Below, one piece after another: positions 3,514 to 27,523 of a DNA stretch of 32,000 nucleotides (position 1 is the first letter of the stretch; each line of letters opens with the position of its first letter). The notes beneath the pieces are model-generated. The model was given only the letters and a program-made list of their open reading frames with translations, was not told the origin of the DNA and ran no database searches. The stretch is from SAR324 cluster bacterium (GTDB lineage Bacteria > SAR324 > NAC60-12). The stretch covers positions 112,194 through 144,193 of the forward strand of contig JADFZZ010000003.1 in the NCBI GenBank assembly GCA_015232315.1, given 5' to 3'. A program made the position numbers and the translations under genes.

Positions 3514-6500
3514 ATGGACAACATATTTCACGCTGATCACCTGTTTCCGTATGCGATTCCACCGTTTTTGACGATGGTGACCGCCTTTTTTCTGGCATCC
3601 ATCACGATTCAGGCTGGACGAGAGAAACGCGCAAATCAGTTATTCACCCTTTACTGTTTGCTTCAGGGACTGCTCTATCTTGATGTGATCCTGGAAACTC
3701 TGTGGATTTCCAAAGTGGCGGCGTTGACCTTCGGACGCGTCATTTTTATGTTTTATATCTTTATTGTTCCGGTAGGTGTTCACTTTGTTCATACCATTTT
3801 TGGGATAAAAGGGTCTTTGCGGATCATTCGCGGATTCTATGCGTTCAGTGCTATTTTTCTCATTATTGTTCCCACCTCCTATTTTTTCAGTGACTACCGG
3901 GATGTCTTTTATGGAAAGGTTCCGGTTCCTGGAATTGGGTTTCACCTATTCTCCTTATACGCGTTGGGTTCCATTATTTATAATGCAATAATTTTGTGGA
4001 AAGGATTCCGACAGACAACAGATTCTGAAAAAAAGCAGAAAATCCGCTATGTGACCTCCGGGATTTTGCTCAACGCGTTTTTAACCTTGTTCAATATTCT
4101 GCCGCTTTTAGACATTGAACTGTATCCCCTGGGAAACTTTGGTTTCATCCCTCTGGCCCTAATGGGCTACGGAATCCTTCAACATCAGTTTCTGGACACA
4201 ACCAAAAGCTGGTTCTCCCAAACAGCGTTTACCAGATTGGTGGTGGGACTCATCTGGGCTCCTTTGGTACTCAGCCTTGTGTTCTGGTTTTTTGCACCCG
4301 CAGAGATGTTTCGTTCTAATGGTTATGAGCATTTTTTACACTACTCCATTCCTCCACTACTAACCGTATTGACCTGTTATGGTCTGGCAACCTTCTGTTT
4401 CACCTCAGGAGGCGCAAAACTGGAAAATCTGCTGTTTGGACTCATTTGCTGGCTGTGGGGGGGCGTGGCCATTGAATTATTGTTTACAGGCAATGTGCTG
4501 GATCAAAATATTGCTTTGTGGATCACCCGAATTGATCATTTTCATCTGGTCAATCAATTGGCGATTTCACTGCATTTAATTTACCGGATTGTCCATCGCC
4601 CCCAACGGAAACTGATTTATTTCTATTACGCTTTTGGCGTCTGTCTGATGTTTTTGACGCATACATCGTATTATTACCAGGATACGATGTATCTTTATTC
4701 CTGGGGGTTGTTCCCCAAAGCAAACTGGGCCCTTCTTGTATATGGAGTTTTTAGTGCTGTCGCAATGATCTGGGCGTTCTGGTTGTTGTTCCAGAAGATG
4801 CGGCATGAACAGGATGCGTTTCAAAAAAAACAAATCCTGTTTATTTTTATTGGAGTGGTGATTACGGCCACACTCAATATCGGAATGGTTCCCGCGACGT
4901 TGGGCATTGATTTCTATCCATTGGGCGGATTTTCATTTATTGCCATTGCAATAACAGCGTATGGGATTTTCTACCATGATGCGCTCAAGCTCAATCCCTA
5001 TACAAAAAAACGGTTGGTTCGTAATATTTATAGAGGCACCATTTTTGCCGGTTATTTTCTCATGATTCCTGTGTCGCTATGGGCCTTACAGGGTTTGACA
5101 GGCGAACACCTCCTGAATCGAATCTGGCCCTATGGAATTCCACCGCTCCTCTCCCTCCTCGTCTGTATTTTTCTATCAAAAATTCTATTGGGAATGGCCA
5201 GCCACAATCAAAAAGAAATCTATGTGTTCAACCTTTTATGTCTGAGTTATGCGTTTTTGAATATGGATATCCTGTTGAATGGCATTGTCACAGATGTCTC
5301 CATAGGATTGCGACTCAATCGCTGGGATCATTTTCAATTGGCTTTTCTGGGAGGGTTCTCCATTCATTTACTCTATCGAATCACCCGCTATGAAAAGCTC
5401 CGATGGTTGATCCCAACCTGTTATGGCTTTGGGGCAATCATGGCTCCGCTGACCCAAACCACCTTTTACCTGCAAGACGAAATGTACACCTATTACTGGG
5501 GTTTTTTTGGCAAAAAAGCCGTACTTTTCGATGTCATGAGTCTGTTCTGGATGACTGTCATTGTTTACACCTGCCTGGTTTATTTCAGATATTATCAAAA
5601 AAGCCGTGACGCCTTCGAAAAACACCGTTTGTTCTATCTGTTCAATGGATTTCTCATTATCGGCTTGCTGTCACTGGGAAACATACCGGCGTTGAATGGC
5701 TATGAAATCTACCCTTTATGTAATTTCATCTTCATTCCCATGCTGTTCCTGGCTTACGGGATGCTGATTCACAACGTGAAAGAACTCACGCAACTGGTTC
5801 GGACCACCCTGTACAGGGCTGGATTGGCCGGCTTCATGATTCTCCTCACAGGCATATTTTGGCAGATTGATCTTTTCACAGAAAATTTTCAGGGCTATCT
5901 CTTGGGATTTATTTTCGGCGTACTCTGCCTGCTGGCCTTTGCCAAAAGCTGGAACATTATCTTGAGACTGTTTTTTATTGAGGAAAAAGAATCCCTGCAG
6001 AAAGCCTTCAACTTCATGATGGAATTGTTTTCACAAGCCACCCGTTTCAGGGAACTGTATCAGTTTGTCAGCTATTCATTGTTTCGCACTCTGTCCGCCC
6101 GTCGTTGTATTCTGTTGATTCAACATGCTCCGGATCAGGATTTTGAAGGCTGGTCCTATCAAAGCATGCAAGACACATTTTTTGAGAAGGCGCATCCCAT
6201 TGAAAACAGTGAACTGCCCGTCTCCCTGAAGCTGGAAAATCAGGTAATCCAGTGGTTCAACACGTTAGGGCGTGGGGCCAGTCACGAAGAAATGATAGAG
6301 TGGGCACTCCTCAACGATGTTTCCTTTGAACCGGGAAATGCCTTGGTGTCCGCAGAGTGGATTCAACCCGTTTTTTTCGAAAATCGACTCAAAGGTTTGG
6401 TACTGCTCCATGAAAAAACAAACAACTCCGCTTATACCCATGAAGAAAAGGAATTCCTCTTTCAATTGGGGATGGCGTTGGGATCTTACATCCAGAGTCT

Positions 6501-8565
6501 GGAGCTGTTACAGGGACTGGAGACAAAAGTACAGGAGCGCACCAGTGAGATCCATCATCTCAATCAGGTGATTCAGGCCGTCAATTCCACGCTGGAACTG
6601 GACGAAATCATTTTAACCATCATGGGATTTCTGCAGGAAATCTTTGATTTTAATCAATTGGGAATCTTCATGGCGGATCCCTCTGGTCAGGAGTTGCTCC
6701 TTATCGAGTATTTTGGTGAGGATATTAATGAAGAGAACCTGAACATCGTGAAAAGCGTTTATCTTCCATTGAAAAGTAATGTAAGTTATGTGTGCGAACC
6801 GTTTTTGAACAATAGCCCCTATTATTTTTCTCCGGTTACAGAAGAACTGGTCCAATATTTCTTTCCGGCAGATAAACAAATTTATGATGCGAATCCTGTC
6901 CAGTCCTACCTTCTGTTTCCGCTGTTAAGGCAGAATCAACCGGTTGGAACGATTGTTTTTGCCAATAGCAAGACAGCTTTTCAATTGATGGAATCGGATA
7001 TGGAACAAATTCAACGTTACGTATCCCAGGTTTCTTCTGCGTTAAACAATGCTCACCTCTCAGAAGAAACGCATAAAGCCCTCTTGAAAGCTCAAATCAA
7101 GGAACAGGAAATCACCCATATCAATCAGGTCGTTCAAACCGTGAATTCCACTCTGGATTTGTCACAGGTCATGCAATCGGTGATGGAGGCCTTGAAACAG
7201 GTGTTTCCGTTCGATCATATCGCGATCATGCTGGTTGATGAAGCTACCCAAACGATGAGATTCGAAAAGATCTATGGAACATCTTCTGACGAACTGGTTC
7301 TGAAGCTGAAACAATTGATCTTTCCTCTCGAGAATATCAATAGTTTTTATGTCAAAACAGTGGTGTATAACGATCTGAACTACATTCCCCGGATCACTCC
7401 TGAGTTAGCTGAATTGTTCTGCGAAAGTGATAAAAAAGCTTATGACATTAATCCAATAACCGCCATTTTAATGTATCCTCTGGAAGTTCAGGAGAATGTC
7501 ATTGGAACACTTGGCTTTGCCAACTATCATGATTTTTTTGATTTGGAAGAAGATACGATCTATAAAATCCAGCGTTATGTCGCTCAGGTTGCGACTGCCA
7601 TCCACAATGCCCAGGTCCATGATGAATTGAAAACAACGAGGGTTCAATTGGCAGAGTCAGAAAAAATCGCGGCAATGACTCTGACCTTTGAAAAATTTGT
7701 GCCTCAACAATTTCTGAGTCGTATTGCCAGAGAAGGGCTGGAAAAGATTGAGCTGGGCAAAGCTGAAAGCGCTTTTATCACCATCCTGTTTTCTGATATT
7801 CGCTCCTTCACCACCTTGTCAGAAACCCTGCCGCCACAGGAATTGATGAACTTCCTGAATGCCTATCTAAAACGGATGGCCAAACCAATCCATGCTCAAA
7901 AAGGTTATATTGACAAGTTCATTGGGGACGCGATCATGGCGCTCTTTGATCTTCCCGATGAAACCCACTCAGAAGAGGCCCTGCGGAGTGTTACTGCCGC
8001 GATTGACATGCATAAAGTTTTGCAACGTTACAATCGACACCGCCAGAAGGTTGGATATGCCCCTATCGAGATCGGGATCGGCATCCATAGTGGACCGGTC
8101 GTCATTGGAACTGTTGGCTCCTCAGACCGGATGGATTCAACCGTTTTGGGAGATACCGTCAATCTTGCGTCCAGACTGGAGAGCCTCACCAAACAATATG
8201 GAGTGAATATCCTGATCAGCAACGAAACCTTTGAGTTGATTCCCAATGAAGAAAATTTTCTTGTTCGGGAAATTGATTGGGTCAAAGTCAAAGGCAAAAA
8301 AGAACCAGTAGGGATATATGAAGTGTTTGATCATGTTCCCAAAGAAATTCAAGAACTCAAACGCAGGTCTGGAAAGTTGATCAAGAAAGGTCTCGTCAGA
8401 AGAATGTTCCGACAGTGGGATGCCGCAATTGAAGCGTTCCGGGAAGCTCTGCAAGTTTACCCGGAAGACAAAACCCCGAAAATCCACATAGAGCGTTGTC
8501 TGATGCTCCAGAATGCCGATCTTCCTGAAAATTGGGATGGGGCGGTGTCGCTGGATAGCAAATAA
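3514..8565 (+). CDS. Giant membrane receptor adenylate cyclase: 3 x 7TM sensor modules, degenerate GAF-like domain, 2 x GAF, class III cyclase, C-terminal TPR-like tail
   Basis: 1683-aa ORF from ATG 3514; the ORF track starts at TTG 3511. Three tandem 7TM modules lie at about 3544-4195, 4336-4980 and 5125-5775. Each opens with an (F/W)PYxIPP helix and closes with a G-x-x-x-YP-x-G-x-F-x-FIP...AYG...H helix. Two GAF-like domains (about 6556-7060 and 7111-7620) are each preceded by a coiled coil containing HxNQV(I/V)QxVNSTL. Class III cyclase motifs are ITILFSDIRSFT, IDKFIGDAIMALF and DSTVLGDTVNLASRLE (about 7771-8333). The tail reads PENWDGAVSLDSK. Confidence 0.9.
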   Translation: MDNIFHADHLFPYAIPPFLTMVTAFFLASITIQAGREKRANQLFTLYCLLQGLLYLDVILETLWISKVAALTFGRVIFMFYIFIVPVGVHFVHTIFGIKGSLRIIRGFYAFSAIFLIIVPTSYFFSDYRDVFYGKVPVPGIGFHLFSLYALGSIIYNAIILWKGFRQTTDSEKKQKIRYVTSGILLNAFLTLFNILPLLDIELYPLGNFGFIPLALMGYGILQHQFLDTTKSWFSQTAFTRLVVGLIWAPLVLSLVFWFFAPAEMFRSNGYEHFLHYSIPPLLTVLTCYGLATFCFTSGGAKLENLLFGLICWLWGGVAIELLFTGNVLDQNIALWITRIDHFHLVNQLAISLHLIYRIVHRPQRKLIYFYYAFGVCLMFLTHTSYYYQDTMYLYSWGLFPKANWALLVYGVFSAVAMIWAFWLLFQKMRHEQDAFQKKQILFIFIGVVITATLNIGMVPATLGIDFYPLGGFSFIAIAITAYGIFYHDALKLNPYTKKRLVRNIYRGTIFAGYFLMIPVSLWALQGLTGEHLLNRIWPYGIPPLLSLLVCIFLSKILLGMASHNQKEIYVFNLLCLSYAFLNMDILLNGIVTDVSIGLRLNRWDHFQLAFLGGFSIHLLYRITRYEKLRWLIPTCYGFGAIMAPLTQTTFYLQDEMYTYYWGFFGKKAVLFDVMSLFWMTVIVYTCLVYFRYYQKSRDAFEKHRLFYLFNGFLIIGLLSLGNIPALNGYEIYPLCNFIFIPMLFLAYGMLIHNVKELTQLVRTTLYRAGLAGFMILLTGIFWQIDLFTENFQGYLLGFIFGVLCLLAFAKSWNIILRLFFIEEKESLQKAFNFMMELFSQATRFRELYQFVSYSLFRTLSARRCILLIQHAPDQDFEGWSYQSMQDTFFEKAHPIENSELPVSLKLENQVIQWFNTLGRGASHEEMIEWALLNDVSFEPGNALVSAEWIQPVFFENRLKGLVLLHEKTNNSAYTHEEKEFLFQLGMALGSYIQSLELLQGLETKVQERTSEIHHLNQVIQAVNSTLELDEIILTIMGFLQEIFDFNQLGIFMADPSGQELLLIEYFGEDINEENLNIVKSVYLPLKSNVSYVCEPFLNNSPYYFSPVTEELVQYFFPADKQIYDANPVQSYLLFPLLRQNQPVGTIVFANSKTAFQLMESDMEQIQRYVSQVSSALNNAHLSEETHKALLKAQIKEQEITHINQVVQTVNSTLDLSQVMQSVMEALKQVFPFDHIAIMLVDEATQTMRFEKIYGTSSDELVLKLKQLIFPLENINSFYVKTVVYNDLNYIPRITPELAELFCESDKKAYDINPITAILMYPLEVQENVIGTLGFANYHDFFDLEEDTIYKIQRYVAQVATAIHNAQVHDELKTTRVQLAESEKIAAMTLTFEKFVPQQFLSRIAREGLEKIELGKAESAFITILFSDIRSFTTLSETLPPQELMNFLNAYLKRMAKPIHAQKGYIDKFIGDAIMALFDLPDETHSEEALRSVTAAIDMHKVLQRYNRHRQKVGYAPIEIGIGIHSGPVVIGTVGSSDRMDSTVLGDTVNLASRLESLTKQYGVNILISNETFELIPNEENFLVREIDWVKVKGKKEPVGIYEVFDHVPKEIQELKRRSGKLIKKGLVRRMFRQWDAAIEAFREALQVYPEDKTPKIHIERCLMLQNADLPENWDGAVSLDSK

Positions 8566-8607
8566 TCTCTTTCTTCATCCATTTGTATGAGCTGATCCTT
8601 GTACAGT

Positions 8608-9114
8608 TCATGGAATAGATTTTAAGGCAAGAAACATCTGAATTGGCTCCGGACGATCTGCCAACTTTCCTTGTTTGACATCAATACGTTCAAACCCATA
8701 ACGCGAATAGAACTCAACCGCCTCAGGTTTTGCATCAACGACAATTCCCACACAACCAAATTTTTGTCTCATTTCTTTAGCTAAATCAAATACCGTTTTC
8801 AATAACTGTAAACCAATCCCTTGCCCTTGAGAATGCTCACTTATGGCTAAACGTGCCAAGCGTAAAACTGGAAGGGGATATTGAGGCAATTTCTTCTTTT
8901 GTGGCTCTTTGAGGAATTCAATTTCTATGTGAGAGGCTGAAATGGTTGCATAACCTTTTATTTCCTGGTCCTCAACGGCTACATAAGTTGTTCCAACATG
9001 ATGTCTAAATTGATTTTGCCCCGCATACAGTTTGAAGAAGCGATCGAGATCTGGATTGCCTGATTGAAAACGAGTTCTATCATCCATTGGACGTAAGGGC
9101 CGAATTTCAATCAT
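8608..9114 (-). CDS. GNAT-family acetyltransferase toxin of a type II TA pair (TacT/KacT/AtaT-like)
   Basis: Sequence from the internal start is MIEIRPL...FQSGNPDLDRFF...PVLRLARLAISEHSQGQGIGLQLL...VVDAKPEAVEFYSRYGFE. This is the acetyl-CoA-binding Q/RxxGxG motif and the general layout of GNAT toxins. The start ATG (9114) overlaps the upstream antitoxin stop in ATGATTGA, an 8-nt overlap. The 198-aa ORF-track version (to 9204) would run through the antitoxin gene, so the shorter start is preferred. Confidence 0.75.
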   Translation of the reverse strand: MIEIRPLRPMDDRTRFQSGNPDLDRFFKLYAGQNQFRHHVGTTYVAVEDQEIKGYATISASHIEIEFLKEPQKKKLPQYPLPVLRLARLAISEHSQGQGIGLQLLKTVFDLAKEMRQKFGCVGIVVDAKPEAVEFYSRYGFERIDVKQGKLADRPEPIQMFLALKSIP

Positions 9115-9379
9115 TGCTGTATAGTGATTGCATTGATGGCGTCGGTGGAGGTGGGTTTTCCAGTTTATCCACAATATATTCTCCTGAATCTTTGGATACG
9201 ACAATTTTGGGAGGTATAATCACACCAAAAGGGATCTCATTCAATGCTTGTAGATAATGTAGAATGGCACTCTCAACAAAGAAACCTTTTTTCACACCGT
9301 GGTTTTGAATATAAGTTTCTAAAAGAGCTTGGGTCTCTGATGATATATGTGCTGTAATTTGTGGACTGATTGTTTTCAT
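9107..9379 (-). CDS. Ribbon-helix-helix antitoxin (DUF1778/TacA-like) cognate to the GNAT toxin
   Basis: 90-aa ORF immediately upstream of the GNAT gene and translationally coupled to it. The N-terminal RHH-like segment reads ITAHISSETQALLETYIQNHGVKKGFFVESAILHYLQAL. The C-terminal tail (LENPPPPTPSMQSL) resembles the toxin-binding tail of DUF1778 antitoxins. Confidence 0.65.
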   Translation of the reverse strand: MKTISPQITAHISSETQALLETYIQNHGVKKGFFVESAILHYLQALNEIPFGVIIPPKIVVSKDSGEYIVDKLENPPPPTPSMQSLYSND

Positions 9380-9453
9380 ATTACCCTCCTGTAGAGAATT
9401 CTACAAAAATGTAGATCGTTCTAAATCATCTGTCAAGAATAACACCTGCAAAC

Positions 9454-9585
9454 CAGGGTTGTTTAATTTTCAGTTTGGCATGGTGGGTAGGTTGGGTAGA
9501 ACGAAGTGAAACCCAACAAAACTCGATGGGTTTCGCAAAGGCTCTACCTATTACGCATCCTTTTTTGGAAAATTAAACGACCCTG
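9454..9585. mobile_element. MITE-like non-autonomous element (132 bp) with TIRs and a 9-bp target-site duplication
   Basis: 17-bp terminal inverted repeat with 16/17 match: cagggttgtttaatttt (9454-9470) / aaaattaaacgaccctg (9569-9585). It is directly abutted on both sides by CCTGCAAAC (9445-9453 and 9586-9594). The interior holds two inverted copies of a short unit: taggttgggtagaacgaagtgaaacccaac (9488-9517, hairpin gttgggt/acccaac) and gatgggtttcgcaaaggctctaccta (9525-9550). Confidence 0.6.
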
Positions 9586-9682
9586 CCTGCAAACAACACA
9601 TCGGGATTGATAAAACGGAAGGTCTGGTTCCCCACCACCCAAGAAGGTCGGGAACCAGAGTTTTGGCGGAAATTGTTATTTT

Positions 9683-11158: not shown

Positions 11159-11190
11159 AAGTCCCCCTGAAATTTGTTTTGCTCGATGTC

Positions 11191-11224: not shown

Positions 11225-11330
11225 TTTTTATACAACTTATTTGTTCGTCAGATAGTTTCGGTGCTATCTGCGAAAAAACACAAACCCATTTCCTCTTAAC
11301 CCCGGAATGTCGCTTTTTGGAGAGCCTGTA

Positions 11331-14300
11331 ATGGAATCAATGCTAAGATTTGACCGGGTTTTCCCCTATGCCATGCCACCGCTACTCACCATCCTCGCCT
11401 GTCTGTTTCTTGCGTTACTAACAATAAAATCAGGAAGAAACAATCGGGAAAATAAATTATTCACGCTCCTCAGCCTGATGCTGTTGCTCTACAATGTGAA
11501 TTTTCTACTTTACATTCTCATGACCTCTCAGTCTGACACCGTGAATGTGACGCGCTGGAGTTTTGTGTTTTTTGTCTTTTCCCTGCCAGTCAGCATCCAG
11601 TTCATTCATCAGATGCTTGGACTTCACAACCGGAAGTGGATCGAGTGGGGATTGTATGGGTTTTGTTTTGTCTCACTTCCATGGATCACGCTCACAGATT
11701 TTTATTTCACGGAAGGTTTTGAGTATTATTTCGGGATGTATCCACGCGCGAATACAGGGTTATATCTGTTTGCGGTGCTGAGTGTTCTCGGGGGGAGCTA
11801 TTACCTGTTTCTGCTTGGAAAAAACTGGCGGGCTGAAACAGATCCCAATCTTCGGCGGAAAATGCTCTACATCCTGATTGGATTTCCAGGCGGGTGGCTG
11901 ATGATCGGTTTCAACATGATTCCCTATTCAGGCATCGAACTTTATCCGCCAGGCGCGTTTGCGTTCATCCCACTGTCACTCATGGTCTATGGCGTACTGC
12001 GTCACGCGTTGCTGGATACCAGTGAATCCTTCCTCAAAAAAGGCTATCTGGGAAAATGGCTGTCGTATGTGACCTTGCTTCCGTTACTGGCCGCGGGTTT
12101 ATTTCTGGAAATGTCAGAATCCCTCAGCATTACCGAAGACCAATCCCTTGTTGAAGTGCTCTGGCCGTTTGGATTTCCACCACTCCTGTCAGCCATCGTC
12201 TGTCTCGGACTCGCCGCATGGTGCCTGAGAAAAGGAATCCGGCAACTGAACACCATTCTGCTGGGCATCATCTGCCTGCTGTGGGGCTTGCTCAGCTTCA
12301 GTCGAGTCCTGATTTTTCTGGTTTCTGTCGGCAGTCCCGCGTTGCAATACCAGATTGCGAACACCGCGCATTTCTTTTTTGTGAATCAGTTGGGTGTCTA
12401 TCTGCATTTTATCCACAGAGTCAGCCATCGCCCTGAACGCAAACTTGTTATTTTTTACTATATCTGCGGCACGATCCTGATGTTTCTTCCTCAGGCCAAT
12501 TTATATTTCAACTCAACGCTCTACCACTATTATTACGGGGTGTATCTCAGTGGTAGCTGGGGCTTTGCCACCGTGGGACTGCTCGGTTTTTTCGGGTTGC
12601 TCCGGGGAGGCTATCTGCTGTTGTCCGCTCAACAAAAGGAAACAAATCCGCGAAAAAAGCGGAATCTGCATTATTTGTTCATCGGTTTGATTCTGACCGG
12701 GATTCTGAATCTGTTTACTGTTCCCGCGTTGCAGGGGATTGAGTTTTATCCGCTGGGAGATTTCACCTTCATTCCGATTGGAATTCTGGCCTATGGGATT
12801 CTGGTGCATGATGTCCTGCACATCAATGTTTCTTCCAAAAAAAGATTTTCGTTTGTGCTGGTAAAATTTCTGGTGATCGCAATCAATGCCGGAGTTTTCA
12901 TGGCAGGGTCATGGGCTTTGCAGGATTACTCATGGGCTCAGATCACCAGCAGACTTGGCTGGAGCAGTTTGCCACAATCGTTGTCCTGGCTCTCTTGCCT
13001 GTTTCTGTCATGGCTCTCACTCAGGATGGCACAAAATCAGAAAGCCGCGCAATTATTCAGTCTGCTGTGCTGTTTGTTCGGATTGATCAATGCTGATATT
13101 TTTTTAAACAGCATCATTGATGATCCGGCCATCGGTTTAAGACTGACCCGCTGGGATCAACCGCTGTTTGTGTTTGTCATGGCCCTGATTCCACACATGA
13201 CCTATCTGATCACCAAAAAAGAAACCGGCTGGCGTCTGGTGTATCTGGCCTACGGAGTGTGTATTGTGTACATTCCGATCACACAGACCGATTATTATTT
13301 CAGAACCATGCAGATGCATTTCTGGGGAATGTTTCCCCGAAACGGATTTTTCTTTGATGTCTTTGCACTGCTCATCGTTCTTTCCGCATCCTATTCCGCA
13401 TATCTGCTTTCAGTGACCTGGCGTGAAACCCGGAATCCGATCTTCAAAAACACAGTGAAGCATCTGCTGCTGGGGTTTATGGGCATTGCTGTGCTGACTC
13501 TGGGGGATATGCCCGCAATTTATGGCTATGACGTCTACCCGATTGGCAGTTTCAGTTTCATTCCCTTGACTGTTTTGGCGTATGGGCTGTTCAAACACAG
13601 TCTGAAAGAACTGGTTCAAAACCTCAGAGGCGTTTTATTTTGGGGGGTCGTAGGGCTGGCGATGGGATTTTTACTGTTTTTCACACGTGAACTGTTCGAT
13701 TTTCTTCCTGCGCAACTGGCACTCATGGCGGTCACTGTGACTGCGCTCATGACCTTTCCGATCCTTACTAAAAGTTGGCAAACCGTGCTGGACTTGTTTA
13801 TCTGCAATCAGGCTGAAGAACTCCGTCAATTGTTTTACTCGCTGACAGAAAACCTTTCACACGTGCATCGCCTCCAGGAAATTCATCAGCAAATCAGCGG
13901 CGCACTCATGGAAAATCTGAAGTGCAGCCGCAGCGAAATTTTATTTTATTCCAGGGAAGACAAAAAACTGATGGGTTGGCAACGCTGGAACAAACATTCC
14001 CCGGTTTTTGAAGATAAAATTCAGGAAAACATTGAAGATAAAACAGCCTTCATGGAACCGTATTATCCATTCCTGTCCATCTTCAATGTAGAAAACACAC
14101 TGATCGCACTGGAGGATATGGAAAGTTGGGTGCTTGAACAGCATCTTCCGCCAACTGTGACTGAAAAAATACTCAATACCGAATTGACCCTTGCCGTTTT
14201 TTTTCAGGATCGTCTGACCGCGCTCATTCTGCTTGACCAGAAAATCAACGGCATCCCCTACAGTCGGAATGATAAGGTTTTTCTGCAACAACTGGGGCTG

Positions 14301-18143: not shown

Positions 18144-20171
18144 ATGGACAACCAACAGAGCACAACTCATCTGTTTGATGAAAATGAGCAAATTCTGGAT
18201 TATTTAAAAAATTCCCGTTTGTTCACCCATTGGCCCAAAGACTTGCTGCTTCAGTTGGTTCCCCTCTCTGAATTCAGGAAATATTCCCCGCAAAGTACCA
18301 TTTTACAGGAAGGCGCCCCCAATGACCGTGTATATTTTCTGATTCGCGGGGAAGTGGATGTGGTTGCCGGGAATGAACACATTTTGTCCCTGAAACGTAA
18401 AGGGGATATCTTTGGTGAAATGAGCATCATTAGTCATAAAACTTGTGCGGCAACAGTCATTGCCCACACGATGGTAGACACCTTCAGCATCAAAGCCAAT
18501 AATATTGGAGACATCACGGATTTTGATGCTTCAATCCTGCAAAACACCTTGTATCGGCTATTTGCGATGATCCTGACCGATAAATTGTCACTGACTACTG
18601 AAAAAGCCAAAAAGTTTGAGGAAACCAACAGACTACTGCACCGCAGTAACCTGCAACTAACAGAGGAAATTCAGGAACGCCAGCATGCTGAGAAACAACT
18701 GGAACAAAGCAATCAGCATCTTCACGAGGAAATTGATCGAAGAAAAAACACAGAACAACAATTAAGGATTGCCAAACACGAAGCCGAATCAGCTAATAGA
18801 AGTAAATCAATGTTTCTTGCCAACATGAGTCATGAAATCCGGACTCCGCTGAACACGATCACAGGCTTCAGTCAGTTGCTTCTGAACCAGGCTGAAAAGT
18901 ATCATCTCTCCGCTGAAGCCACTCAATATCTGGATGGCATCACACAAAGCGGTCATCATTTATCAGAACTGATCGGAAACATTCTGGATCTTTCAAAAAT
19001 TGAATCCGGAAAAATAGACATCGTGCTGGAATCAATCAATCTCCGACTCTTGATCCAGGGTATTTTTCACATCAACAAAGCACAGGCCCTAAAGAAAAAT
19101 ATCCAGTTGACTTATCATGTTGATCCAGCCCTGCCTGACTCCATCTATTCTGATCGCAACAAACTCCAGCAGATTTTAATGAATTTCACAGTCAACGCCA
19201 TTAAATTCACATCAGAAGGTAAATCTGTCAAAATCAACGCCCTCAGAGAACAACAGAACCTTCTGCTGAAGGTCATTGATGAAGGCATTGGCATTGCTCC
19301 GGAATTCCATTCGAAAATTTTTGAACCCTTTGAACAGGTCGATAATACCCAAAGCCGGAATTATAGTGGTACAGGACTTGGACTGACCATTGTGAAACAA
19401 CTTGTGGACATGCTGCAAGGAGAGATTGGTGTCAAAAGTGAGCTGGGCAAAGGTTCGGAGTTTTATGTCAAACTACCACTGAAAGAAGGTCACTCCAATC
19501 AGGACATTGCCTCAGATGAGAACTTACCACTAAATTTTCAGTTTGCGCCAGACAGTAAAATTCTGGTGGTAGAAGATAATCCACCCACTCGACAAATGAT
19601 GAACGCGTATTTTGAATCAAAGGGACTCCGGGCCATCATTGTAAAAAACGCATATGAATTTTTCCAGAAAATCGAAGAATTTGAACCTGAAGTGATTCTG
19701 ATGGATGTTCATATGCCCGGAATGGATGGCATCTCAGCAATCAGGAAACTGAAAGCATCACACAAACATGCTCATATTCCTGTCTTGGTACTTTCCGCAG
19801 ATGTTTTCAAGGAACAGCAAGATCAAGCGATTGCAGCCGGTGCTGCTGGATTTCTCGGGAAACCTTTACGAATGGACGTGTTGTTGCGGATGCTGTCAAA
19901 AATTTTAAGACAACAATCCGTGCCAATTCCCCTATCTCAAGCCAACTTGTTAACACCTGAGCTAAGAGGCCAGATCTTGGAGGAGTTTAAAAAATTGTCA
20001 TTGATGCCATTTTTTGATGAAGCTGAATTGATAGATCAACTCAACAAAATCAATAATATATGCCCGACTGAGCCTGCATGGTCTGCAACACTGGATAAAA
20101 TCATGAACAGCATCATTCACGGAAATGAACCTGAATTTCAGGCATTACTCAAGGAGTGGATGAATGATTAA
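18144..20171 (+). CDS. Hybrid sensor histidine kinase: cNMP-binding-like domain, coiled coil, HisKA, HATPase_c, REC, uncharacterised C-terminal ~100 aa
   Basis: The cNMP-like beta-barrel reads [12 protein letters not shown]...[21 protein letters not shown]. The H-box is [10 protein letters not shown] (His codon 18831-18833). Also present are an N-box (NAIKFT), G1 (DEGIGI) and G2 (GTGLGLTIV). REC motifs are ILVVEDN...[12 protein letters not shown]...LSAD...GKP. Confidence 0.9.
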
Positions 20172-22671
20172 TATTCTGATTGTGGATGATGACAGATTCT
20201 TTATACAGAATCTTCGGCAGCAGATTGCGGAATGTGGCTACAGTTCCAAATACGCGGTTAATCCCTCGTTTGTACTTCCCCTGCTGGAAAAAGAGACGTT
20301 TGATCTTATATTGATGGATATCAATATGCCAGAGATGGACGGCATCATGCTTCTCAAACAACTCAAGTCCCATCCCGTGTATAAAAGAATTCCCGTGATC
20401 ATGCTGACAATGGAAACGGATGACCAGTCCCTGGTGACCTGTTTGAATAACGGGGCGATGGATTATATAAACAAACCTGTTAACAAACTGGCACTGGAAG
20501 CACGAATCAATGCCGCACTACGCACCATAGAATACGAAACATGGCTGGAAAAAAAATATCATGAGGAATGGAAGCAACGTATTGATTTAACACGCAAGCT
20601 TCAGAAAAACGAAAAACTGATTCATCAGTGGGAGATTCTCCCCGGGGATATTCAGTCTTCATTGCAACAGACTCTGGATAATTTTGAAAACAATGCCGAT
20701 TTCGTAGATAAAGAACTCATTGCTGTCCTGATCCAGATGACCGGGCAATATGGCGACAATCTGTCCAATTTTTTAAAATTAAGCAGAAAACGGGATGCCC
20801 AGACCATTGAACAACGAAATGCCCGTGTTGCGCTTTTAAAGAATATTCCGTTGTTTCAATCGCTCAACGTATTTGATCTGGCCATTCTGTCTGAAAGAAT
20901 GGAAGCCCTTGACGCAACAGAAGATATGGAACTTCTGGTTCAGAATGCTCCTGCGGGGTGGGTCTATTTTATTGGTTCAGGAATAGCGGAAATCCTGGTC
21001 AATGGAGAAATAGTGGCACATCGAAAAGCGGGGGATTCCATTGGCGAAATGTCCTGTTTGCGATCAGAACCCAACGCTTCGGCCACTGTCCGTATGGTTG
21101 ATGCCGGCACTGTTTTCCGAATTGAACGAACAGCGTTCATGGAAGTGATAAACCGACTTCCACCATTATGGAAACGTGTCTTCATGGAGGCAACCAATCG
21201 ACTCAATCAGTTGTCACATCGTCTCAGTGAACTTTCACAGCATACCGCACAGGGGATTGTAAAAATTGATCCTCAAGGCAAAATCACGTCTGACTTTTCC
21301 TCTCCATGTATCAAGGTATTTGGTACCAAGTCACTGATCGGAAAAAATCTGGAGGATTTAATGTTTCCGGAAGATCCCATTGTGCAGGAAGGATGGCGGC
21401 AGGCATACCCTCTGTTTTTCGAAAATGCCCTGATGGATTATGAGATGCTGGCTGAAATGATGCCTCGTGAAACAGTGATTGTTCATGAGGGTGTCCCCAG
21501 GGAATACAAACTTTCCTATTATCCATGCCGAAACGCGGAAAAAATCCTCACCGGGATTGATATTGAAATTGAAGACATCACGGAAGAACGAAAATTATCC
21601 CGGGAAACGGAAGCTTTGAAAAGAGAGCAGTATATTGTGGAAAAAATCTATAACGATCCTGATTCCTACATGCAGATGCTACTTCTGATGGAAGACAACC
21701 TGACCATGCTGCGTCAATTTTCTGAAAAACTGACCTCAAACGCTATGGCACAACTCAAGGAGGACACGGTTGAACTCATGCGTCTGCTTCACACACTCAA
21801 AGGTGTCAGCAGTCTGTTTGGTCTGGATCGTGCCAAGGCGATCACGCACCAACTTGAAGAATTTCTTCGCTCCTCCATCAACTCCCCGAGCGTTCTGAAA
21901 ACCCAGTTGATCCAGGGTACTGTGGACTTGACCGCACAATGCGATTATGCACGGGAGTTGCTTGAAAAAATTGACCCTGATTTACGCAAACGATTGATAG
22001 GCGTTGTGTTTTCCAATGACGATTTCGCTGACTTGAAAAAATCCCTTCAGTCACGAGACTATGGACGTGTTGAAACACTGGTATTGAGTGCAGAAAAAGT
22101 CTCCCTGAAAAAACTGGCTCAACACTGGCCCGCTGAAATCCGTAAGCTGGAAACAGCCTTAGGAAAACAGGTTAAATTGATCATTGAAGGCGAAAATGTC
22201 CAGGTATCCCGAACACTGTTCCAGAAACTGGATGGACCGTTGGTGCATCTCCTGAGAAACTGCATGGATCATGGCCTTGAGACCGTGGAAGAACGACTTG
22301 AAAAAGGCAAGGATGAATGGGGACGTCTCACCTTGAAAATCAGTATGGTGAATGAATGGGTCACGCTGGAAATATCTGACGATGGCAACGGCATCAATTA
22401 TGAACGGATCCTGCAAAAAGCACAGAACCATCCTTCGCTGGACCAGACCGTGGTGCAACAACTGATTGACGAGAACACTGTGTGGAAAATTCTGTTTCTT
22501 CCGGGATTCAGCACAACGGAACAAGTCACTGATTTATCCGGTAGAGGGGTTGGGTTGGATGTCGTACAGAACACGATCAACGAACTGCATGGCAACATGC
22601 AGGTTGAAACCACCCCTGATCAGGGAACCAGTTTTATCCTGCGGTTTCCGCTGGCGCAGGACACTGCGTAA
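20164..22671 (+). CDS. Multidomain kinase: REC, cNMP-binding-like, PAS-like, Hpt, CheA-type HATPase (no CheW-like P5 domain)
   Basis: The start overlaps the upstream stop by 8 nt (ATGATTAA). REC motifs are ILIVDDD...[13 protein letters not shown]...INKP. The cNMP-like domain reads [20 protein letters not shown]. The Hpt motif is [13 protein letters not shown] (His codon 21790-21792). The CheA-like P4 region reads [47 protein letters not shown] and [24 protein letters not shown]. The ORF ends right after the ATPase domain. Confidence 0.9.
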
Positions 22672-22875: not shown

Positions 22876-23011
22876 ACCTTCGATATGCCGCATAATTCCA
22901 AGAGTTATTTTGGAAAGATGTCTATTCTTTTGCCGTTCCTTACCAAAGGCTCGGGATAACAGTTAACGGTAACCCGGTTCTACCAATCATCCCTCAGCGG
23001 AAGGTCACGAA

Positions 23012-26000
23012 TTATTTGATATCCATGATAACGGCACCGTTCCAGTTTTCAGGCAGAATCCGGGCCTGTAACTGCTCACACTGCCGAATATGAAGCATGG
23101 CCGCCCGATCTTCAGGAAAGACCGACAGGGACTTCTCAAACATCTTGATCGCATCCCACCATTTTCGTTCATACCTCAAGAAGAGTCCTGCCGAAAAAAA
23201 TTGTCTGGTCTCGTTTTTCATTTCCAGAATATGTGGCGGATCGTGATTGAACACTTCATAAATACCTGTGGCTTCTGTTTTTCCTTTCACCTGGATCCAG
23301 TCCAGTTCCCTGAAACACAGATGTTTTTGTTCCATCATCAGATAGCGGACCGTCCGACTGACAATAATAGACGCTCCGTAATATTTGGTGAGTCCTTCCA
23401 TGCGTGCGGCGATGTTGACCGTATCTCCGACGACCGTTGAATCCATTCTGTCCTGTCCTCCCACAGTTCCAATCACCACGGGCCCCCGGTGCAGTCCAAT
23501 GCCAATACGAACCGGAGAATATCCGACAGACTCGCGATGCTGGTTGTAGAGTTGCACAGCCTGTTGCATCGCAATGGCGGCATTCACAGCGTTCAGCGTG
23601 CTGTTGACAGGATCCTTTTCCGGATAGTCAAACAAGGCCATGATGGCATCACCGATGAATTTGTCGATGAAGCCATAATTGTCATGAATGGCATTGTTCA
23701 TCCGTTTAAAATAGGCATTGAGGAAATTCAGCAATTCCTGGGGGGTCAAGGTTTCAGAAAAAGAGGTGAAATCACGAATATCAGAAAATAAAATCGAAAG
23801 CTCTTCACTTTCCGCATTACCCAGTTGAATGTTTTCCATCCCATCCACGGCCAGCCGTTTCAAAAATTGACGGGGCACAAATTTTTCAAAAGTGCGGGTC
23901 ATGGCCGCGATTTTTTCAGTGCCTGCCAACTGGATCTGCGTGGTCTTCAATTCCTGATAAAGATGGGCATTATGAATGGCGATCGCGACTTGCGGGACAT
24001 AGCGTTCAATTCGTTGAAGGTCGCTTTCATTGAGTTCAAACGGGGTAATAGTCTGCACAAAAACCATGACGCCAATCACTTCCTGCTGGACTGAAATGGG
24101 AACCAGCAGGTAGGCCTTGACAGGATGAATATCATACATCTGTTTATCAATGGGGAAAAAATAATCACTCAATGTCGGTGTGATTGGAGAAATATATTTG
24201 GTTTCCTTGTCCAGAATAGTGTTGGCGATATAACTGGTGTACTGTTCCAGGGGAATCGAAATTTGACGGATCATCTCAGCCTGTTCCCGGGAATAGGCCC
24301 CTTTGCCATAGTAATCGGCGAGACGAATTGTTTTTTTGTCAGGCTCAACCAGAAAAATGCCGAGTTGATTAAAATCCAGAATGGTTTGCAGGCCCTCCAT
24401 AACAGCGTCCATGACATCCCTCAGATTGAGGGTGGAACTGACCATTTTCAGGACCTGATTCATGTGCTCGAGTTCCAGTTCATGCTGATGAGACTGTTCG
24501 TACAGCGTCATAACCTGTTTCTGTGCCTGTTCCAGGTCACGGGTCCGTTCCTCAACCATGTGTTCCAGTCCCTCAAGGAGTCTGGTGTTTTCAATATGGG
24601 CCCCTAAACCAAAGCCAATTTGTGCTAAAAAGTTTTTTTCGGCATCCGAGTAATAATTGCCATTCAATTTCTCACCAAGCAACATCAGCGCACAAATCGT
24701 TTCCTGATAAAATACAGGCACGATCAGCCAGGCATTGCGCATCTGGTCAGCGCCACTGGCAGGATGTGTCAGTAGCCATTCCTCCCATTCCTCCTGCTGG
24801 ATCAAATGTCGATCTTCCATGAATTCAAGCAGGGCATGATCGGCTGGAATGGAGCACCATTCCTCTGAAGTGGTGCTGGTTGAGCCAAAAAAGACATGTT
24901 CCGCATGGGTGTGTTGCCAGCCGGTGTAAGCCTGTTGTTTCGCGTCAAATACCAGAAATGATAATTGCCGGGTCGATAATAAGCGCCCCAGGTGATTGGC
25001 CAGGACTGAACCCAGCTCCTTGAGCGACCGGGACTGTGATAATTCCTGGTTGAGTTTGGGAATTTTATGCCGGATGTGATCAGGTCCCTGCCAGAATAAT
25101 TTGAGAAGCATGTTCAGAACATGAAAAATAACTTTGTAGCCAAGTATAACCATGGCCATGACCACCCAATAGGCCAACACCCCCCAATTGGTTGGAAAAA
25201 CAAGTTTGAGGCTGACGCCCAGGAGTCCCAGGGCGCTGAGCGTTGCAGACCACAGCACAATTTTTCTGCTGATCTGTAGAGCGTTTTGCAGATTATGGCG
25301 GAACAGCCCATAGGCAATGAACAAAAACGGGATGAAAATCAAACTGCCCAGCGGATAAATCTGATAACCCACCGTGCCGGGGATATTTCCCAATGTGAAC
25401 ACGCCAGCTCCCAGGGTTCCCGGAAAAATCCATTGGGAACCAACACTTGCCTCCGTCACCTTCATTGTGTGGTATTTCCGATAAATCAGCCATGCGGCGA
25501 GTGGCGTATAAACCAGCCAGCCCAGACACATGAATAAAAAGGCGATATTTCCTTGTGGGTACCACCCCCAGGGCATTTTAACCGAAGTGCCGAAATACCA
25601 ACTGGTTTGGGTCAGCGGTAGCATGATGAGGCCTGCGAGATAGGCACCTTTCCAGAGCCAGCGATGAGTGGTTATTCTAAAAACAATGAATAAAAAATGC
25701 AGTGTCAGCCCCAGAATCAACACCAGAAAAAAGTGACTCAGCCGACTGAGCGTCAATGCCTGTTCCGCGGAATTTACCATATTGTTCAGGAAAATTTCGG
25801 TATTAAGAAATGCGTAAATCGTACAGATGATGCTGAAAATTTGTGATGTTTGGGTGTGCTGTCCCAGGTAAAGCGCCAGTATCGACAGCAATCCACAAAT
25901 CAGTACTGAAATGAAGGGGGGCAGGACATACCAGTTTAAATGAGTCAGCATGTGTTGCCAGGAGTGTTCACGGACAACCCACAAAATAATGAAGAACAGT

Positions 26001-27523
26001 CCGAAATACCCCAAAATCACTCCAAGGCGCACCATCTGCCCCTTGAGTCTTCTTTTGGTATAAAGATTCATCGACAGGATTTCATGATGGAACATGCCAT
26101 AAGCCATGAGCAATCCCGGAATGAAGATCCAGGTTGCAGTCGGATAAAAATCAATTCCGTTGACCAGCGGAATGTTTCCCAAGGTCAAGAGGGCACTGAC
26201 AGAGTTTCCCAGGAATACAAACAGGATCCGCTTTTTCTGTAGGGAATCTGTTTCCACGAGCCAGGACTTTCTCAATAACCAGCAGGCCCAGAGCGTGGCC
26301 AGACTGCCACTGATGCCAAACAGATTGAACGGCCATTTTCCATGCAGATAGTAACCAAACGAATAGGTGTAAGGCTGTGGCCATGCATACCATGGTGTCA
26401 TTACCAGATACATGAGCAACAGGGATAGTCCATACAGCAGATAGATCAGCCGACGTTCATCCCGTTTGAGCAACAGATAAACAAAGTGCAGACCGATGGG
26501 AAGGATCGCAACCAGAAACGCATGGGTTGTGAGTGCGATGTGATTGACAAGTGTGGCATCTTTCAGGATAAACGCACACAGAGTATTCAGGTTGAGCCAT
26601 CCCAGTAACGCAAAAAACACACCCAGTAACAAGGCTGAGAGGTCACGGTAAATTTTCAGAAAACAGAAACTGGCAAGTCCCAGACAGACAAACAGGGAAG
26701 TGACGGGTGGGATCGCATAACGCCATCCCGCAGTCCAGAATTCCGGTCTGGTGTGTGTGTTGGCGGCGGCCAGCATGAAGAGAACAAATACCAGAACTGG
26801 AAGCCAGAAGAACATGACGATCAATCTGGGGTAATGTCCTCGATTGAACCAGTTTCTGGTGGTGGCAAACAGTCTGTATTCCAGAATGCCATAGGCGATG
26901 AACAACAGTGGAATAAATCCGAAATTTCCAGGAGGATAAATGTTGATACCAAAGGTTGGGATGGCAGTGGTGAGCGTCAACGCGGCATTCAGAATCATGC
27001 CCAGCAAGACATAACGGACTTTATGCGAACTTGCTTTCAACTTTGACCAGAGCAGAGCGATAGCGTAAATCAACGAGACACCCGCATAAATCACAAAAAA
27101 ATCATATCCGGGACCAGTAAGATATTCTACACCCTGCGGCGTTTGATAAGTTCCTCTGACAAACCAGGAGGTTGGTACCGTCAGCATCAGCAGCAAACTG
27201 ATGGTGTAATTGATCCTGATCACCAGAAACCAGTGTTTTATCGCCAGAATTTCATGAATAAAATGCAGTGCCACCGGGACGATAAAAACGTAAGGCAGAT
27301 AGATGAAATGAAGGAGGTTCAAACTCATTGAGGGGGAGAGACTCACGGTGTCAATCAGTTCATTGAACGCCTCGAGTCCCTGGAGGATGCAATAGATGGT
27401 GAATAACTGCGCGTCACGACGGTGTCGTCCGGTTTTGATCGTGATTGATGCCAGAAAAAAAGCTATCACAACGGTCAAAATGATTGGAACAGTGTATGGA
27501 AAGATTAAATCCCAACGAAGCAT
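23012..27523 (-). CDS. Giant membrane receptor adenylate cyclase: 3 x 7TM sensor modules, degenerate GAF-like domain, 1 x GAF, class III cyclase, TPR-like tail
   Basis: 1503-aa ORF. The 7TM modules lie at aa 8-216, 267-480 and 530-743 (nt 27502-26876, 26725-26084, 25936-25295). The GAF domain is at aa ~1020-1190 (nt 24466-23954). The cyclase is at aa ~1240-1430 (nt 23806-23234) with LSILFSDIRDFT, IDKFIGDAIMALF and DSTVVGDTVNIAARMEG. The tail reads PENWNGAVIMDIK. By eye it is about three-quarters identical to the 3514-8565 protein across the GAF-cyclase region. Confidence 0.9.
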   Translation of the reverse strand: MLRWDLIFPYTVPIILTVVIAFFLASITIKTGRHRRDAQLFTIYCILQGLEAFNELIDTVSLSPSMSLNLLHFIYLPYVFIVPVALHFIHEILAIKHWFLVIRINYTISLLLMLTVPTSWFVRGTYQTPQGVEYLTGPGYDFFVIYAGVSLIYAIALLWSKLKASSHKVRYVLLGMILNAALTLTTAIPTFGINIYPPGNFGFIPLLFIAYGILEYRLFATTRNWFNRGHYPRLIVMFFWLPVLVFVLFMLAAANTHTRPEFWTAGWRYAIPPVTSLFVCLGLASFCFLKIYRDLSALLLGVFFALLGWLNLNTLCAFILKDATLVNHIALTTHAFLVAILPIGLHFVYLLLKRDERRLIYLLYGLSLLLMYLVMTPWYAWPQPYTYSFGYYLHGKWPFNLFGISGSLATLWACWLLRKSWLVETDSLQKKRILFVFLGNSVSALLTLGNIPLVNGIDFYPTATWIFIPGLLMAYGMFHHEILSMNLYTKRRLKGQMVRLGVILGYFGLFFIILWVVREHSWQHMLTHLNWYVLPPFISVLICGLLSILALYLGQHTQTSQIFSIICTIYAFLNTEIFLNNMVNSAEQALTLSRLSHFFLVLILGLTLHFLFIVFRITTHRWLWKGAYLAGLIMLPLTQTSWYFGTSVKMPWGWYPQGNIAFLFMCLGWLVYTPLAAWLIYRKYHTMKVTEASVGSQWIFPGTLGAGVFTLGNIPGTVGYQIYPLGSLIFIPFLFIAYGLFRHNLQNALQISRKIVLWSATLSALGLLGVSLKLVFPTNWGVLAYWVVMAMVILGYKVIFHVLNMLLKLFWQGPDHIRHKIPKLNQELSQSRSLKELGSVLANHLGRLLSTRQLSFLVFDAKQQAYTGWQHTHAEHVFFGSTSTTSEEWCSIPADHALLEFMEDRHLIQQEEWEEWLLTHPASGADQMRNAWLIVPVFYQETICALMLLGEKLNGNYYSDAEKNFLAQIGFGLGAHIENTRLLEGLEHMVEERTRDLEQAQKQVMTLYEQSHQHELELEHMNQVLKMVSSTLNLRDVMDAVMEGLQTILDFNQLGIFLVEPDKKTIRLADYYGKGAYSREQAEMIRQISIPLEQYTSYIANTILDKETKYISPITPTLSDYFFPIDKQMYDIHPVKAYLLVPISVQQEVIGVMVFVQTITPFELNESDLQRIERYVPQVAIAIHNAHLYQELKTTQIQLAGTEKIAAMTRTFEKFVPRQFLKRLAVDGMENIQLGNAESEELSILFSDIRDFTSFSETLTPQELLNFLNAYFKRMNNAIHDNYGFIDKFIGDAIMALFDYPEKDPVNSTLNAVNAAIAMQQAVQLYNQHRESVGYSPVRIGIGLHRGPVVIGTVGGQDRMDSTVVGDTVNIAARMEGLTKYYGASIIVSRTVRYLMMEQKHLCFRELDWIQVKGKTEATGIYEVFNHDPPHILEMKNETRQFFSAGLFLRYERKWWDAIKMFEKSLSVFPEDRAAMLHIRQCEQLQARILPENWNGAVIMDIK

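Follow-up and report, generated by a model that had tools for sequence, protein, structure and literature searches.

HisKA_7TM (PF16927) is a functionally orphan domain family whose description is that of a lone N-terminal domain in histidine kinases, and in the searchable literature it appears only in two surveys of archaeal kinases without a ligand or a mechanism (PMC5847659, PMC6944256). The logic of a seven-transmembrane (7TM) input with swappable outputs is also known already, as in the 7TMR-DISM proteins (PF07695/PF07696), in which a bacterial 7TM input is fused to interchangeable kinase, GGDEF, cyclase, and PP2C outputs. In this study, we analyzed three genes, denoted as A, B, and C, in a 32,000-nucleotide stretch from a SAR324 cluster bacterium (GenBank assembly GCA_015232315.1, contig JADFZZ010000003.1, positions 112,194 to 144,193; this whole stretch is hereafter called the window). 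Each of them encodes a membrane sensor in which three 7TM modules follow one another in a single chain.

The modules of A, B, and C share with HisKA_7TM the seven helices, the N-terminal placement, and the link to a cytoplasmic transmitter. They differ in that each chain has three in succession, joined by fixed single-helix linkers and each bearing a position-specific signature, and in that they drive adenylate cyclase or GGDEF outputs. The 7TMR-DISM proteins carry a single 7TM unit, whereas A, B, and C lack the DISMED extracellular domain and start directly at helix 1. Membership in 7TMR-DISM was rejected, as no Pfam match was obtained and an hhalign comparison of a 35-module profile with the 7TMR-DISM cyclase P0021 gave a probability of 0.1%. 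P0021 and a neighbor gene in a related SAR324 genome (locus L012) were the two 7TMR-DISM examples met in the searches. Membrane class III cyclases with a 6TM or 2x6TM domain (Rv1625c/Cya and the mammalian mACs) likewise place a cyclase under a large polytopic membrane domain. These membrane domains act as receptors for lipids or quorum-type ligands and transmit via a helical coiled-coil region (PMC4821796, PMC11606603, PMC12505454, PMC9433096). Their fold is 6TM rather than 7TM and they comprise one or two membrane units, in contrast to the three repeated sensor units of A and C, which furthermore place GAF domains between the membrane and the cyclase. The only other described case that we found of tandem 7TM sensory modules in one chain with an effector is that of the bestrhodopsins (PMC10962995), but these are eukaryotic, retinal-based, limited to two modules at most, coupled to a channel effector, and unrelated in sequence.

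What is new at the present locus is a conserved array that unites two or three bundles in a single chain and has fixed linkers, position signatures, and a predicted fold like that seen in G-protein-coupled receptors (GPCRs). The original prediction knew of no described, conserved three-in-a-row arrangement; the searchable literature yielded no description of this tandem 7TM arrangement, and the source annotations name these proteins and their relatives from the output domains only. We know of no described bacterial membrane receptor in which a whole polytopic sensor is repeated inside one chain. The conserved series of one, two, and three modules represents a new design principle, and the GPCR-like fold of the modules, as predicted, bears on the origin and versatility of 7TM signaling.

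Module repeat, topology, and predicted fold

The N-terminal ~770 residues of A, B, and C each consist of three modules. The nine modules span 222–231 residues (~225) and align nearly gap-free over 236 columns. A hidden Markov model (HMM) built from the position-1 modules only matched the position-2 and position-3 modules at E-values of 1e-25 to 1e-36, and reciprocal tests with a profile from one other position gave 1e-20 to 1e-42 (all scaled to 1e6 sequences). BLASTP between the modules of one protein reached an E-value of 2e-34, with the weakest pair, C1 and C2, at 1e-3. The internal repeat is real and lies far beyond chance. The motifs that had been proposed to frame all nine modules held in part. 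At the start of helix 1, one Pro is invariant, whereas the full aromatic-P-(Y/F)-x-h-P-P motif occurs in four of the nine modules. The closing motif departs from the proposed form in A2 (FIA), C2 (YPTATW), and C3 (GSLIF), and C1 ends in Y instead of H; its Y, P, F, I, Y, and G columns are invariant.

HisKA_7TM had been named as a candidate family, and this assignment was confirmed by B1 and C1, which scored 34.7 and 42.9 bits against PF16927 over nearly the full model length, above the Pfam gathering cut-off of 28.6 bits. The seven other window modules gave no direct Pfam match to PF16927. Profiles from B1/C1-type modules, in turn, matched these remaining seven at E-values of 1e-20 to 1e-42. 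PF16927 was also matched in 8 of 30 triple-module relatives, with a best E-value of 2.6e-24, and in two stretches of the relative P0071. By these profile matches, the modules of A, B, and C are divergent members of HisKA_7TM.

Column-averaged hydropathy over the nine modules revealed seven hydrophobic segments per module. Lys and Arg accumulate in the odd-numbered loops (1, 3, and 5) and C-terminal to helix 7, while the remaining loops are acidic or aromatic; this positive-inside signature therefore indicates a bundle with its N-terminus outside and its C-terminus inside. The topology is also supported by two relatives, P0058 and P0071, in which extracytoplasmic-type domains directly precede the array. 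As had been predicted, consecutive modules are separated by one helix: 65 of the 68 linkers in triple-module proteins, each of ~35 residues, contain exactly one predicted helix. Since the repeating unit thus comprises eight helices, an even number, the module orientation stays constant along the chain. In triple-module relatives, the linker helices also show motif conservation of their own, with one nearly invariant Pro, and look like structural parts rather than tethers. The two helices expected after module 3 were likewise recovered, in that hydropathy places two hydrophobic helices after the last module in 25 of 34 triple-module proteins. Each chain would consequently thread the membrane about 25 times, a number that relies on hydropathy for the final two helices.

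An AlphaFold2 model of residues 1–830 of C, calculated from a 23-sequence alignment, has a mean predicted local distance difference test score (pLDDT) of 83.3 and a predicted TM-score (pTM) of 0.69. In this model, each of the three modules has seven helices, with helices 4 and 5 joined by a beta-hairpin, and a single helix lies between one module and the next. The second module of C modeled alone, with 35 aligned modules, again has seven helices, with a pLDDT of 93.8 and a pTM of 0.89. The presence of three equivalent 7TM modules per protein is thus borne out by the alignment, the cross-position HMM matches, hydropathy with the positive-inside pattern, and the model of C. The pTM of 0.69 over an 830-residue chain suggests that the bundles have some definite mutual placement, although not which one.

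A Foldseek search of the PDB with the C2 model returned GPCR 7TM domains for all of the top 50 matches, mainly class C receptors (mGlu, CaSR, and GABA-B) together with adhesion receptors. The module-normalized TM-scores are 0.55–0.65, with a best E-value of 6.1e-4 and root-mean-square deviations (rmsd) of 5–6 Å. The whole-sensor model retrieved the same GPCR families with weaker E-values. In contrast to this structural resemblance, the Pfam scan of the modules gave no match to a GPCR family, and the module profile found no match among PDB sequences even at an E-value of 10. The module is thus predicted to have a GPCR-like fold, a likeness that is not evidence of common ancestry and may be convergent. 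The eukaryotic class C and adhesion receptors share with the modules the N-out/C-in topology and the beta-hairpin between helices 4 and 5. They differ in the lack of any sequence-level similarity; A, B, and C have no G-protein coupling, their output is covalently attached, and they contain three bundles per chain.

The original prediction held that module i of one paralog is closest to module i of the others. Within the window, same-position identity is 30–43%, compared with 21–33% between positions. Among 22 triple-module proteins (231 protein pairs), the mean same-position identities are 0.381, 0.382, and 0.368 for positions 1, 2, and 3, respectively, whereas the cross-position means are 0.265–0.296. 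Same-position identity exceeds cross-position identity in 230 of the 231 pairs. The phylogeny suggested for the nine modules was widened to 230 modules, and both nearest-neighbor and neighbor-joining analyses agree with the positional grouping; one clade, for example, contains 24 position-2 modules among its 28 members. Consensus strings give each position a distinct signature that is kept across phyla. These identities and module trees place the triplication before the split of the paralogs, as had been proposed, and also before that of SAR324, the Desulfobacterales, strain TL4, and CSSED10-310. This makes the triplication old, with similar constraint on its three positions. The last module of two-module proteins, as well as some single modules, is most similar to position 3 of the triples.

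Distribution of the array and its outputs

The nine-module profile was searched against 1.84 billion representatives clustered at 50% identity, and it matched 3107 proteins at E <= 1e-3, of which 183 reached E <= 1e-30. HisKA_7TM is thus a widespread orphan sensor, with 3107 representatives at this clustering level reached by the module profile. Full-length module matches were counted in the best 150 of the 3107 matches together with the earlier matches, where they define 91 one-module, 41 two-module, and 32 triple-module proteins. About 12 further triple-type proteins score as two because their modules 1 and 2 are divergent, and no protein in this set has more than three full modules. With ~45 triple-module sequences in hand, the triple design is represented by at least 30 clusters from SAR324, the Desulfobacterales, and allied lineages. 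The layout follows a simple rule, in which 7+2 helices become 7+1+7+2 and then 7+1+7+1+7+2, so that each added module brings one linker helix.

The outputs extend well beyond those encoded in the window. Pfam assignments for 30 triple-module proteins comprise histidine kinases in 17 (15 of which also have a receiver and 9 an Hpt domain), GGDEF in 7, class III cyclases in 4, and SpoIIE/PP2C phosphatases in 3. A local domain scan agrees with these assignments, and the two-module proteins are mostly kinase–receiver–PP2C fusions. The genome survey proposed with the original prediction therefore finds the tripled design outside the window with kinase, receiver, phosphatase, cyclase, and GGDEF outputs. 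The triple chassis is a generic input module, not confined to the three genes and two kinds of output seen here.

Hosts of triple-module proteins are SAR324, the Desulfobacterales/Desulfobacteraceae, the Syntrophaceae, 'Deltaproteobacteria bacterium TL4', and candidate division CSSED10-310, while two-module proteins are found in the Spirochaetota and Leptospirales. A genome scan with the three window sensors, which is a sample and not a census, identified at least 11 loci. One of them, from TL4 (L003), contains two triple-module genes at 4603-8748 and 8752-12843, arranged head to tail and four bases apart. The paralogous clustering of triple-module receptors is therefore not peculiar to the genome of the window.

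Two relatives have additional domains in front of the array. P0058 (SAR324, partial, 3040 aa) combines a WD40 propeller, three SBP_bac_3 domains, three 7TM modules, and GAF domains, and P0071 (2352 aa) combines a Ser/Thr kinase, a WD40 propeller, two 7TM modules, GAF domains, and a cyclase. As judged from their domain order, these proteins point to an array that is able to relay signals from external domains. In class C receptors, a Venus-flytrap domain lies N-terminal to the 7TM domain, and the periplasmic-binding-protein-type domains of P0058 occupy the same place relative to its array.

A receptor model and its alternatives

When the most conserved columns of the 230 modules are placed on the topology as we read it, about 18 of the top 25 would lie on the periplasmic face. 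Among them, helix 1 starts with a Pro-Pro and helix 3 with an Arg and a His, the hairpin between helices 4 and 5 contributes a Tyr and a nearly invariant Gly, and helix 6 has an Asn at its outer end. The same set includes the G-x3-Y-P-x-G-N-F-x-F-I-P stretch, which is modeled as two short helices preceding helix 7. Because the conservation clusters at the periplasmic face, we propose that each bundle has an outward-facing site.

On the cytoplasmic side, the two extra helices are followed in every family member by a conserved GAF-like domain of ~170 residues, which ends in L-L-x-G-L-E-x2-V-x-E-R-T (ERT in A and C, and QRT in B). A signaling helix is a dimeric parallel coiled coil of ~40 residues with a central ERT signature that joins sensor and effector domains (PMC1592074). 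The segment after the GAF-like domain of A, B, and C appears to be such a helix, and its R, T, and flanking Leu residues are nearly invariant in 30 relatives.

The output domains are those that had been read from the translations, namely GAF and Guanylate_cyc in A and C and GGDEF in B (Pfam and NCBIfam), and their catalytic residues are intact. The cyclases of A and C retain the two metal-binding Asp residues (in FSDIR and IGD), the Lys in K-F-I-G-D, the Thr in S-T-V-x-G-D, and the Asn/Arg pair, and both contain the motif (S)TV(L/V)GDTVN(L/I)A(S/A)R. We take the Lys and Thr to be the adenine-specifying pair of the sAC/CyaC-type class III subclass. In an alignment to solved structures, the Lys of the C cyclase falls on the engineered Lys of 6fht, an adenylate-cyclase construct, whereas the guanylate cyclase Cya2 (2w01) has a Glu at this position. 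Cyclic AMP (cAMP) would be the expected product of A and C. In B, the GGDEF motif is intact at residue 1277 (RKSD-IVVRL-GGDEF), and the RKSD five residues upstream presumably corresponds to the product-inhibition I-site (RxxD). B probably makes cyclic di-GMP (c-di-GMP); the nucleotides named here for all three proteins are those predicted from the motifs.

With a probability of roughly 0.6, A, B, and C are paralogous inner-membrane ligand-binding receptors that use three outward-facing sites to signal to a dimeric enzyme. Each bundle would form its own outward-facing site from the conserved residues of the periplasmic face, and the ligand of these sites would be small or lipid-like. With three modules that are not equivalent, the receptor might integrate up to three inputs. 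A conformational change would leave through helix 7 of module 3 and pass by way of the two extra helices and the GAF-like domain to the ERT-type signaling helix. Since the signaling helix is a parallel coiled coil, the receptor would act as a homodimer. Class III cyclases and GGDEF enzymes both need dimerization, which fits such a homodimeric receptor. The sensor state would then set the activity of the dimeric output, cAMP synthesis in A and C and c-di-GMP synthesis in B. A bolder form of this proposal, which we put forward tentatively and consider rather unlikely, is an unrecognized receptor class in which three GPCR-like bundles each bind a different cue, creating a three-input coincidence detector or integrator that works without G proteins. 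If this were true, the array would be the bacterial equivalent, in one polypeptide, of a GPCR hetero-oligomer.

Several observations weigh against the ligand-binding receptor. The putative binding pocket is read from residue conservation alone, and the searchable literature reports no ligand for any HisKA_7TM domain. The similarity to GPCRs in the models is confined to the fold level, with rmsd values of 5–6 Å and E-values no better than 6e-4. The one- and two-module relatives use the same outputs, and three modules are therefore not required for signaling as such. In the predicted transmission path, AlphaFold draws residues 730–775 of C as one continuous 46-residue helix, and pLDDT falls in the range of 56–67 further along. 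Finally, if the C orthologue P0002 described below is a genuine gene, the receptor may not need its third bundle, and the chassis may tolerate the loss of a bundle. Concerning the region of residues 730–830 of C (25034-25334, minus strand), we note that the modeled 730–775 helix joins helix 7 of module 3 to the next hydrophobic segment and, drawn in this way, cannot span the membrane twice.

P0002, from another SAR324 genome (GCA_015231535.1, L012 10001-13918), is 93–95% identical to C on both flanks of a clean in-frame deletion of 198 residues, corresponding to residues 511–708 of C. Its two ends lie midway along linker helix 2 and midway along helix 6 of module 3, which are thereby fused. 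It removes exactly six spans, and the predicted topology is therefore preserved. P0002 could be a natural variant with two and a bit modules or an assembly artefact.

With 25 helices per chain and ~50 per dimer, the array might instead sense the state of the membrane itself, that is, its thickness, fluidity, lateral pressure, or bulk lipid composition, a reading that we regard as possible but doubtful. It is favored by the absence of an extracytoplasmic domain in A, B, and C, which have short outer loops only, by a model in which the sensor is nearly all intramembrane, and by the lipid responses of other class III cyclase membrane domains (PMC11606603, PMC12505454). The envelope and lipid theme of the neighboring genes (MMPL, patatin-like phospholipase, OmpA-like protein, and Bor-like lipoprotein) points in the same direction; this argument is weak, however, as the neighborhood is only partly conserved in the related genome L012. 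Conservation is strongest in polar, aromatic, and Gly/Pro motifs of the periplasmic side and not on lipid-facing helix surfaces, and the signatures kept at each position across phyla fit specific sites better than bulk sensing. A second reading that takes the size of the membrane domain as its point of departure is that of a 'transceptor', in which flux through a pseudo-trimeric pore or carrier controls the outputs. Twenty-five helices are transporter-sized, internal repeats are typical of transporters, and Pfam gave weak matches, below threshold, to Yip1 and Ost-alpha-type membrane families. Nevertheless, the leading matches of the structure searches were GPCR 7TM domains only, with no transporter fold, no transporter family was matched in Pfam or NCBIfam, the repeats are parallel and not inverted, and one-module relatives have the same outputs, all of which makes this reading very unlikely.

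Another possibility is that only module 3 senses, with modules 1 and 2 serving as accessories for assembly, localization, or modulation of module 3. Module 3 alone is physically joined to the transmitter, and the resemblance of the last module of two-module proteins and of some single modules to module 3 suggests that modules were added N-terminally to a functional 7+2 core. A purely accessory role is unlikely, however, given that modules 1 and 2 are as conserved among orthologues (0.381 and 0.382) as module 3 (0.368) and that those of A, B, and C keep the invariant residues of the closing motif. P0002 argues in the same sense, as it loses most of module 3 and keeps modules 1 and 2. We also considered tandem rhodopsin-like retinal photoreceptors analogous to the bestrhodopsins. 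The seven helices, the external N-terminus, and the marine source are in line with this idea, and algae possess tandem 7TM photoreceptor modules with effectors fused to them (PMC10962995). It is nonetheless extremely improbable, since the top 50 structural matches contain no microbial rhodopsin and no Bac_rhodopsin match was found in Pfam. The identity of the modules as microbial rhodopsins was rejected on the helix-7 consensus, F-x-F-I-P-x4-A-Y-G, which lacks the Schiff-base Lys in all position classes.

Under the ligand-binding receptor model, the cyclase-coupled proteins A and C offer a direct read-out for finding the ligand of the family and the logic of its modules. SAR324 is an abundant, uncultured deep-ocean lineage, and a large paralogous family of such receptors provides a clue to what its cells monitor.

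Features of the window and gene neighborhood

The coordinates of the receptor genes, their domains, and the two kinase genes between B and C are summarized in Table 1. The probable start of gene B is assigned to Met12 because its close relative P0048 (1352 aa) starts at the matching residue and the N-termini of A and C agree with this choice. The product of gene C is identical to the NCBI protein P0001, from a SAR324 cluster metagenome-assembled genome. Past their catalytic domains, A and C share a tail of ~85 conserved residues, which in A gives a weak TPR-like match with an E-value of 0.02. An Rfam search of the window gave no match.

Table 1. Receptor genes A, B, and C, their predicted domains, and two intervening kinase genes (positions refer to the window; aa, amino acids; ORF, open reading frame)
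Feature	Position	Strand	Residues (aa)	Evidence and remarks
Gene A	3514..8565	+	1683	From ATG at 3514 (TTG at 3511); ORF, translation, Pfam, module HMM. Order: three 7TM modules, two helices, GAF-like domain, signaling helix, two GAF, class III adenylate cyclase, TPR-like tail
A module 1	3526..4206	+	6-232	Nine-module alignment, cross-position HMM matches
A linker 1	4207..4317	+	233-269	Single hydrophobic helix; hydropathy, W-x-P motif conserved in triple-module relatives
A module 2	4318..4998	+	270-496	Nine-module alignment, cross-position HMM
A linker 2	4999..5100	+	497-530	Single hydrophobic helix; hydropathy, conserved linker motif
A module 3	5101..5793	+	531-761	Nine-module alignment, cross-position HMM
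A two hydrophobic helices past module 3	5794..6000	+	762-830	Hydropathy
A juxtamembrane GAF-like domain and putative signaling helix	6001..6585	+		ERT at aa 1009; conserved family-wide; sub-threshold GAF_2 match; PMC1592074
A two GAF domains	6592..7647	+	1028-1178 and about 1199-1379	Pfam GAF/GAF_2/GAF_3 (two stretches), NCBIfam stretch 1199-1379
A class III nucleotide cyclase domain	7774..8307	+	1422-1599	PF00211 E 8.7e-29; FSDIR, KFIGD, STVLGDTVNLASR; analogy with C, which was aligned to solved cyclases
A cyclase tail	8308..8562	+		
Gene B	11307..15398	+	1363	From 11307; probable true start Met12 at 11340. Order: three 7TM modules, two helices, GAF-like domain, signaling helix, GAF-like/DUF3369-like region, GGDEF
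B module 1	11343..12026	+	13-240	PF16927 34.7 bits
B module 2	12138..12830	+	278-508	Nine-module alignment, cross-position HMM
B module 3	12927..13619	+	541-771	Nine-module alignment, cross-position HMM
B two hydrophobic helices, GAF-like juxtamembrane domain, putative signaling helix	13620..14411	+		QRT at aa 1019; hydropathy, motif
B GGDEF diguanylate cyclase domain	14895..15368	+	1197-1354	PF00990 E 3.2e-36, TIGR00254 E 7.9e-37
Hybrid kinase 1, between B and C	18144..20171	+		cNMP_binding, HisKA, HATPase_c, REC
Hybrid kinase 2, between B and C	20164..22671	+		REC, cNMP_binding, sub-threshold PAS_9, Hpt, HATPase_c
Gene C	23012..27523	-	1503	ORF, translation, Pfam. Order: three 7TM modules, two helices, GAF-like domain, signaling helix, GAF, class III adenylate cyclase, TPR-like tail
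C module 1	26855..27520	-	2-223	PF16927 42.9 bits
C module 2	26063..26749	-	259-487	Modeled singly, pLDDT 93.8
C module 3	25274..25963	-	521-750	Alignment, AlphaFold model, cross-position HMM
C two hydrophobic helices past module 3	25034..25273	-	751-830	Hydropathy; geometry poorly resolved in model
C juxtamembrane GAF-like domain and putative signaling helix	24494..25033	-		ERT at aa 992; GAF_2 end-to-end match E 3.6e-4, below cut-off
C GAF domain	23972..24430	-	1032-1184	Pfam
C class III adenylate cyclase domain	23270..23812	-	1238-1418	PF00211 E 1.3e-25; best PDB relatives are adenylate cyclases
C cyclase tail	23015..23269	-		

The two hybrid kinase genes overlap in an operon-like arrangement, and their products resemble readers of locally made cAMP. 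Such a local circuit was downgraded as a candidate, as both cNMP-binding domains lack the canonical phosphate-binding Arg, which is replaced by Cys and Ala, and the two kinases are absent near the C orthologue in L012. The genes interspersed with the receptors, at 194-2785, 8608-9204, and 9683-11158 on the minus strand and at 15715-16584 and 17117-17635 on the plus strand, have an envelope and lipid flavor and include an MMPL/RND-type transporter, a GNAT acetyltransferase, a patatin-like phospholipase with DUF3336, an OmpA-like protein, and a Bor-like lipoprotein. A gene at 30469-31242 on the plus strand encodes a metallo-beta-lactamase-fold protein that scores 128 bits (cut-off 50) against the anti-Pycsar Apyc1 family, and a counterpart is found at 5118-5891 in L012. 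This protein is a candidate cyclic-mononucleotide phosphodiesterase and could act as an eraser of the cAMP made by C. The Apyc1-family gene, together with a pyridine-nucleotide-disulphide oxidoreductase gene, stays near the C orthologue in L012.

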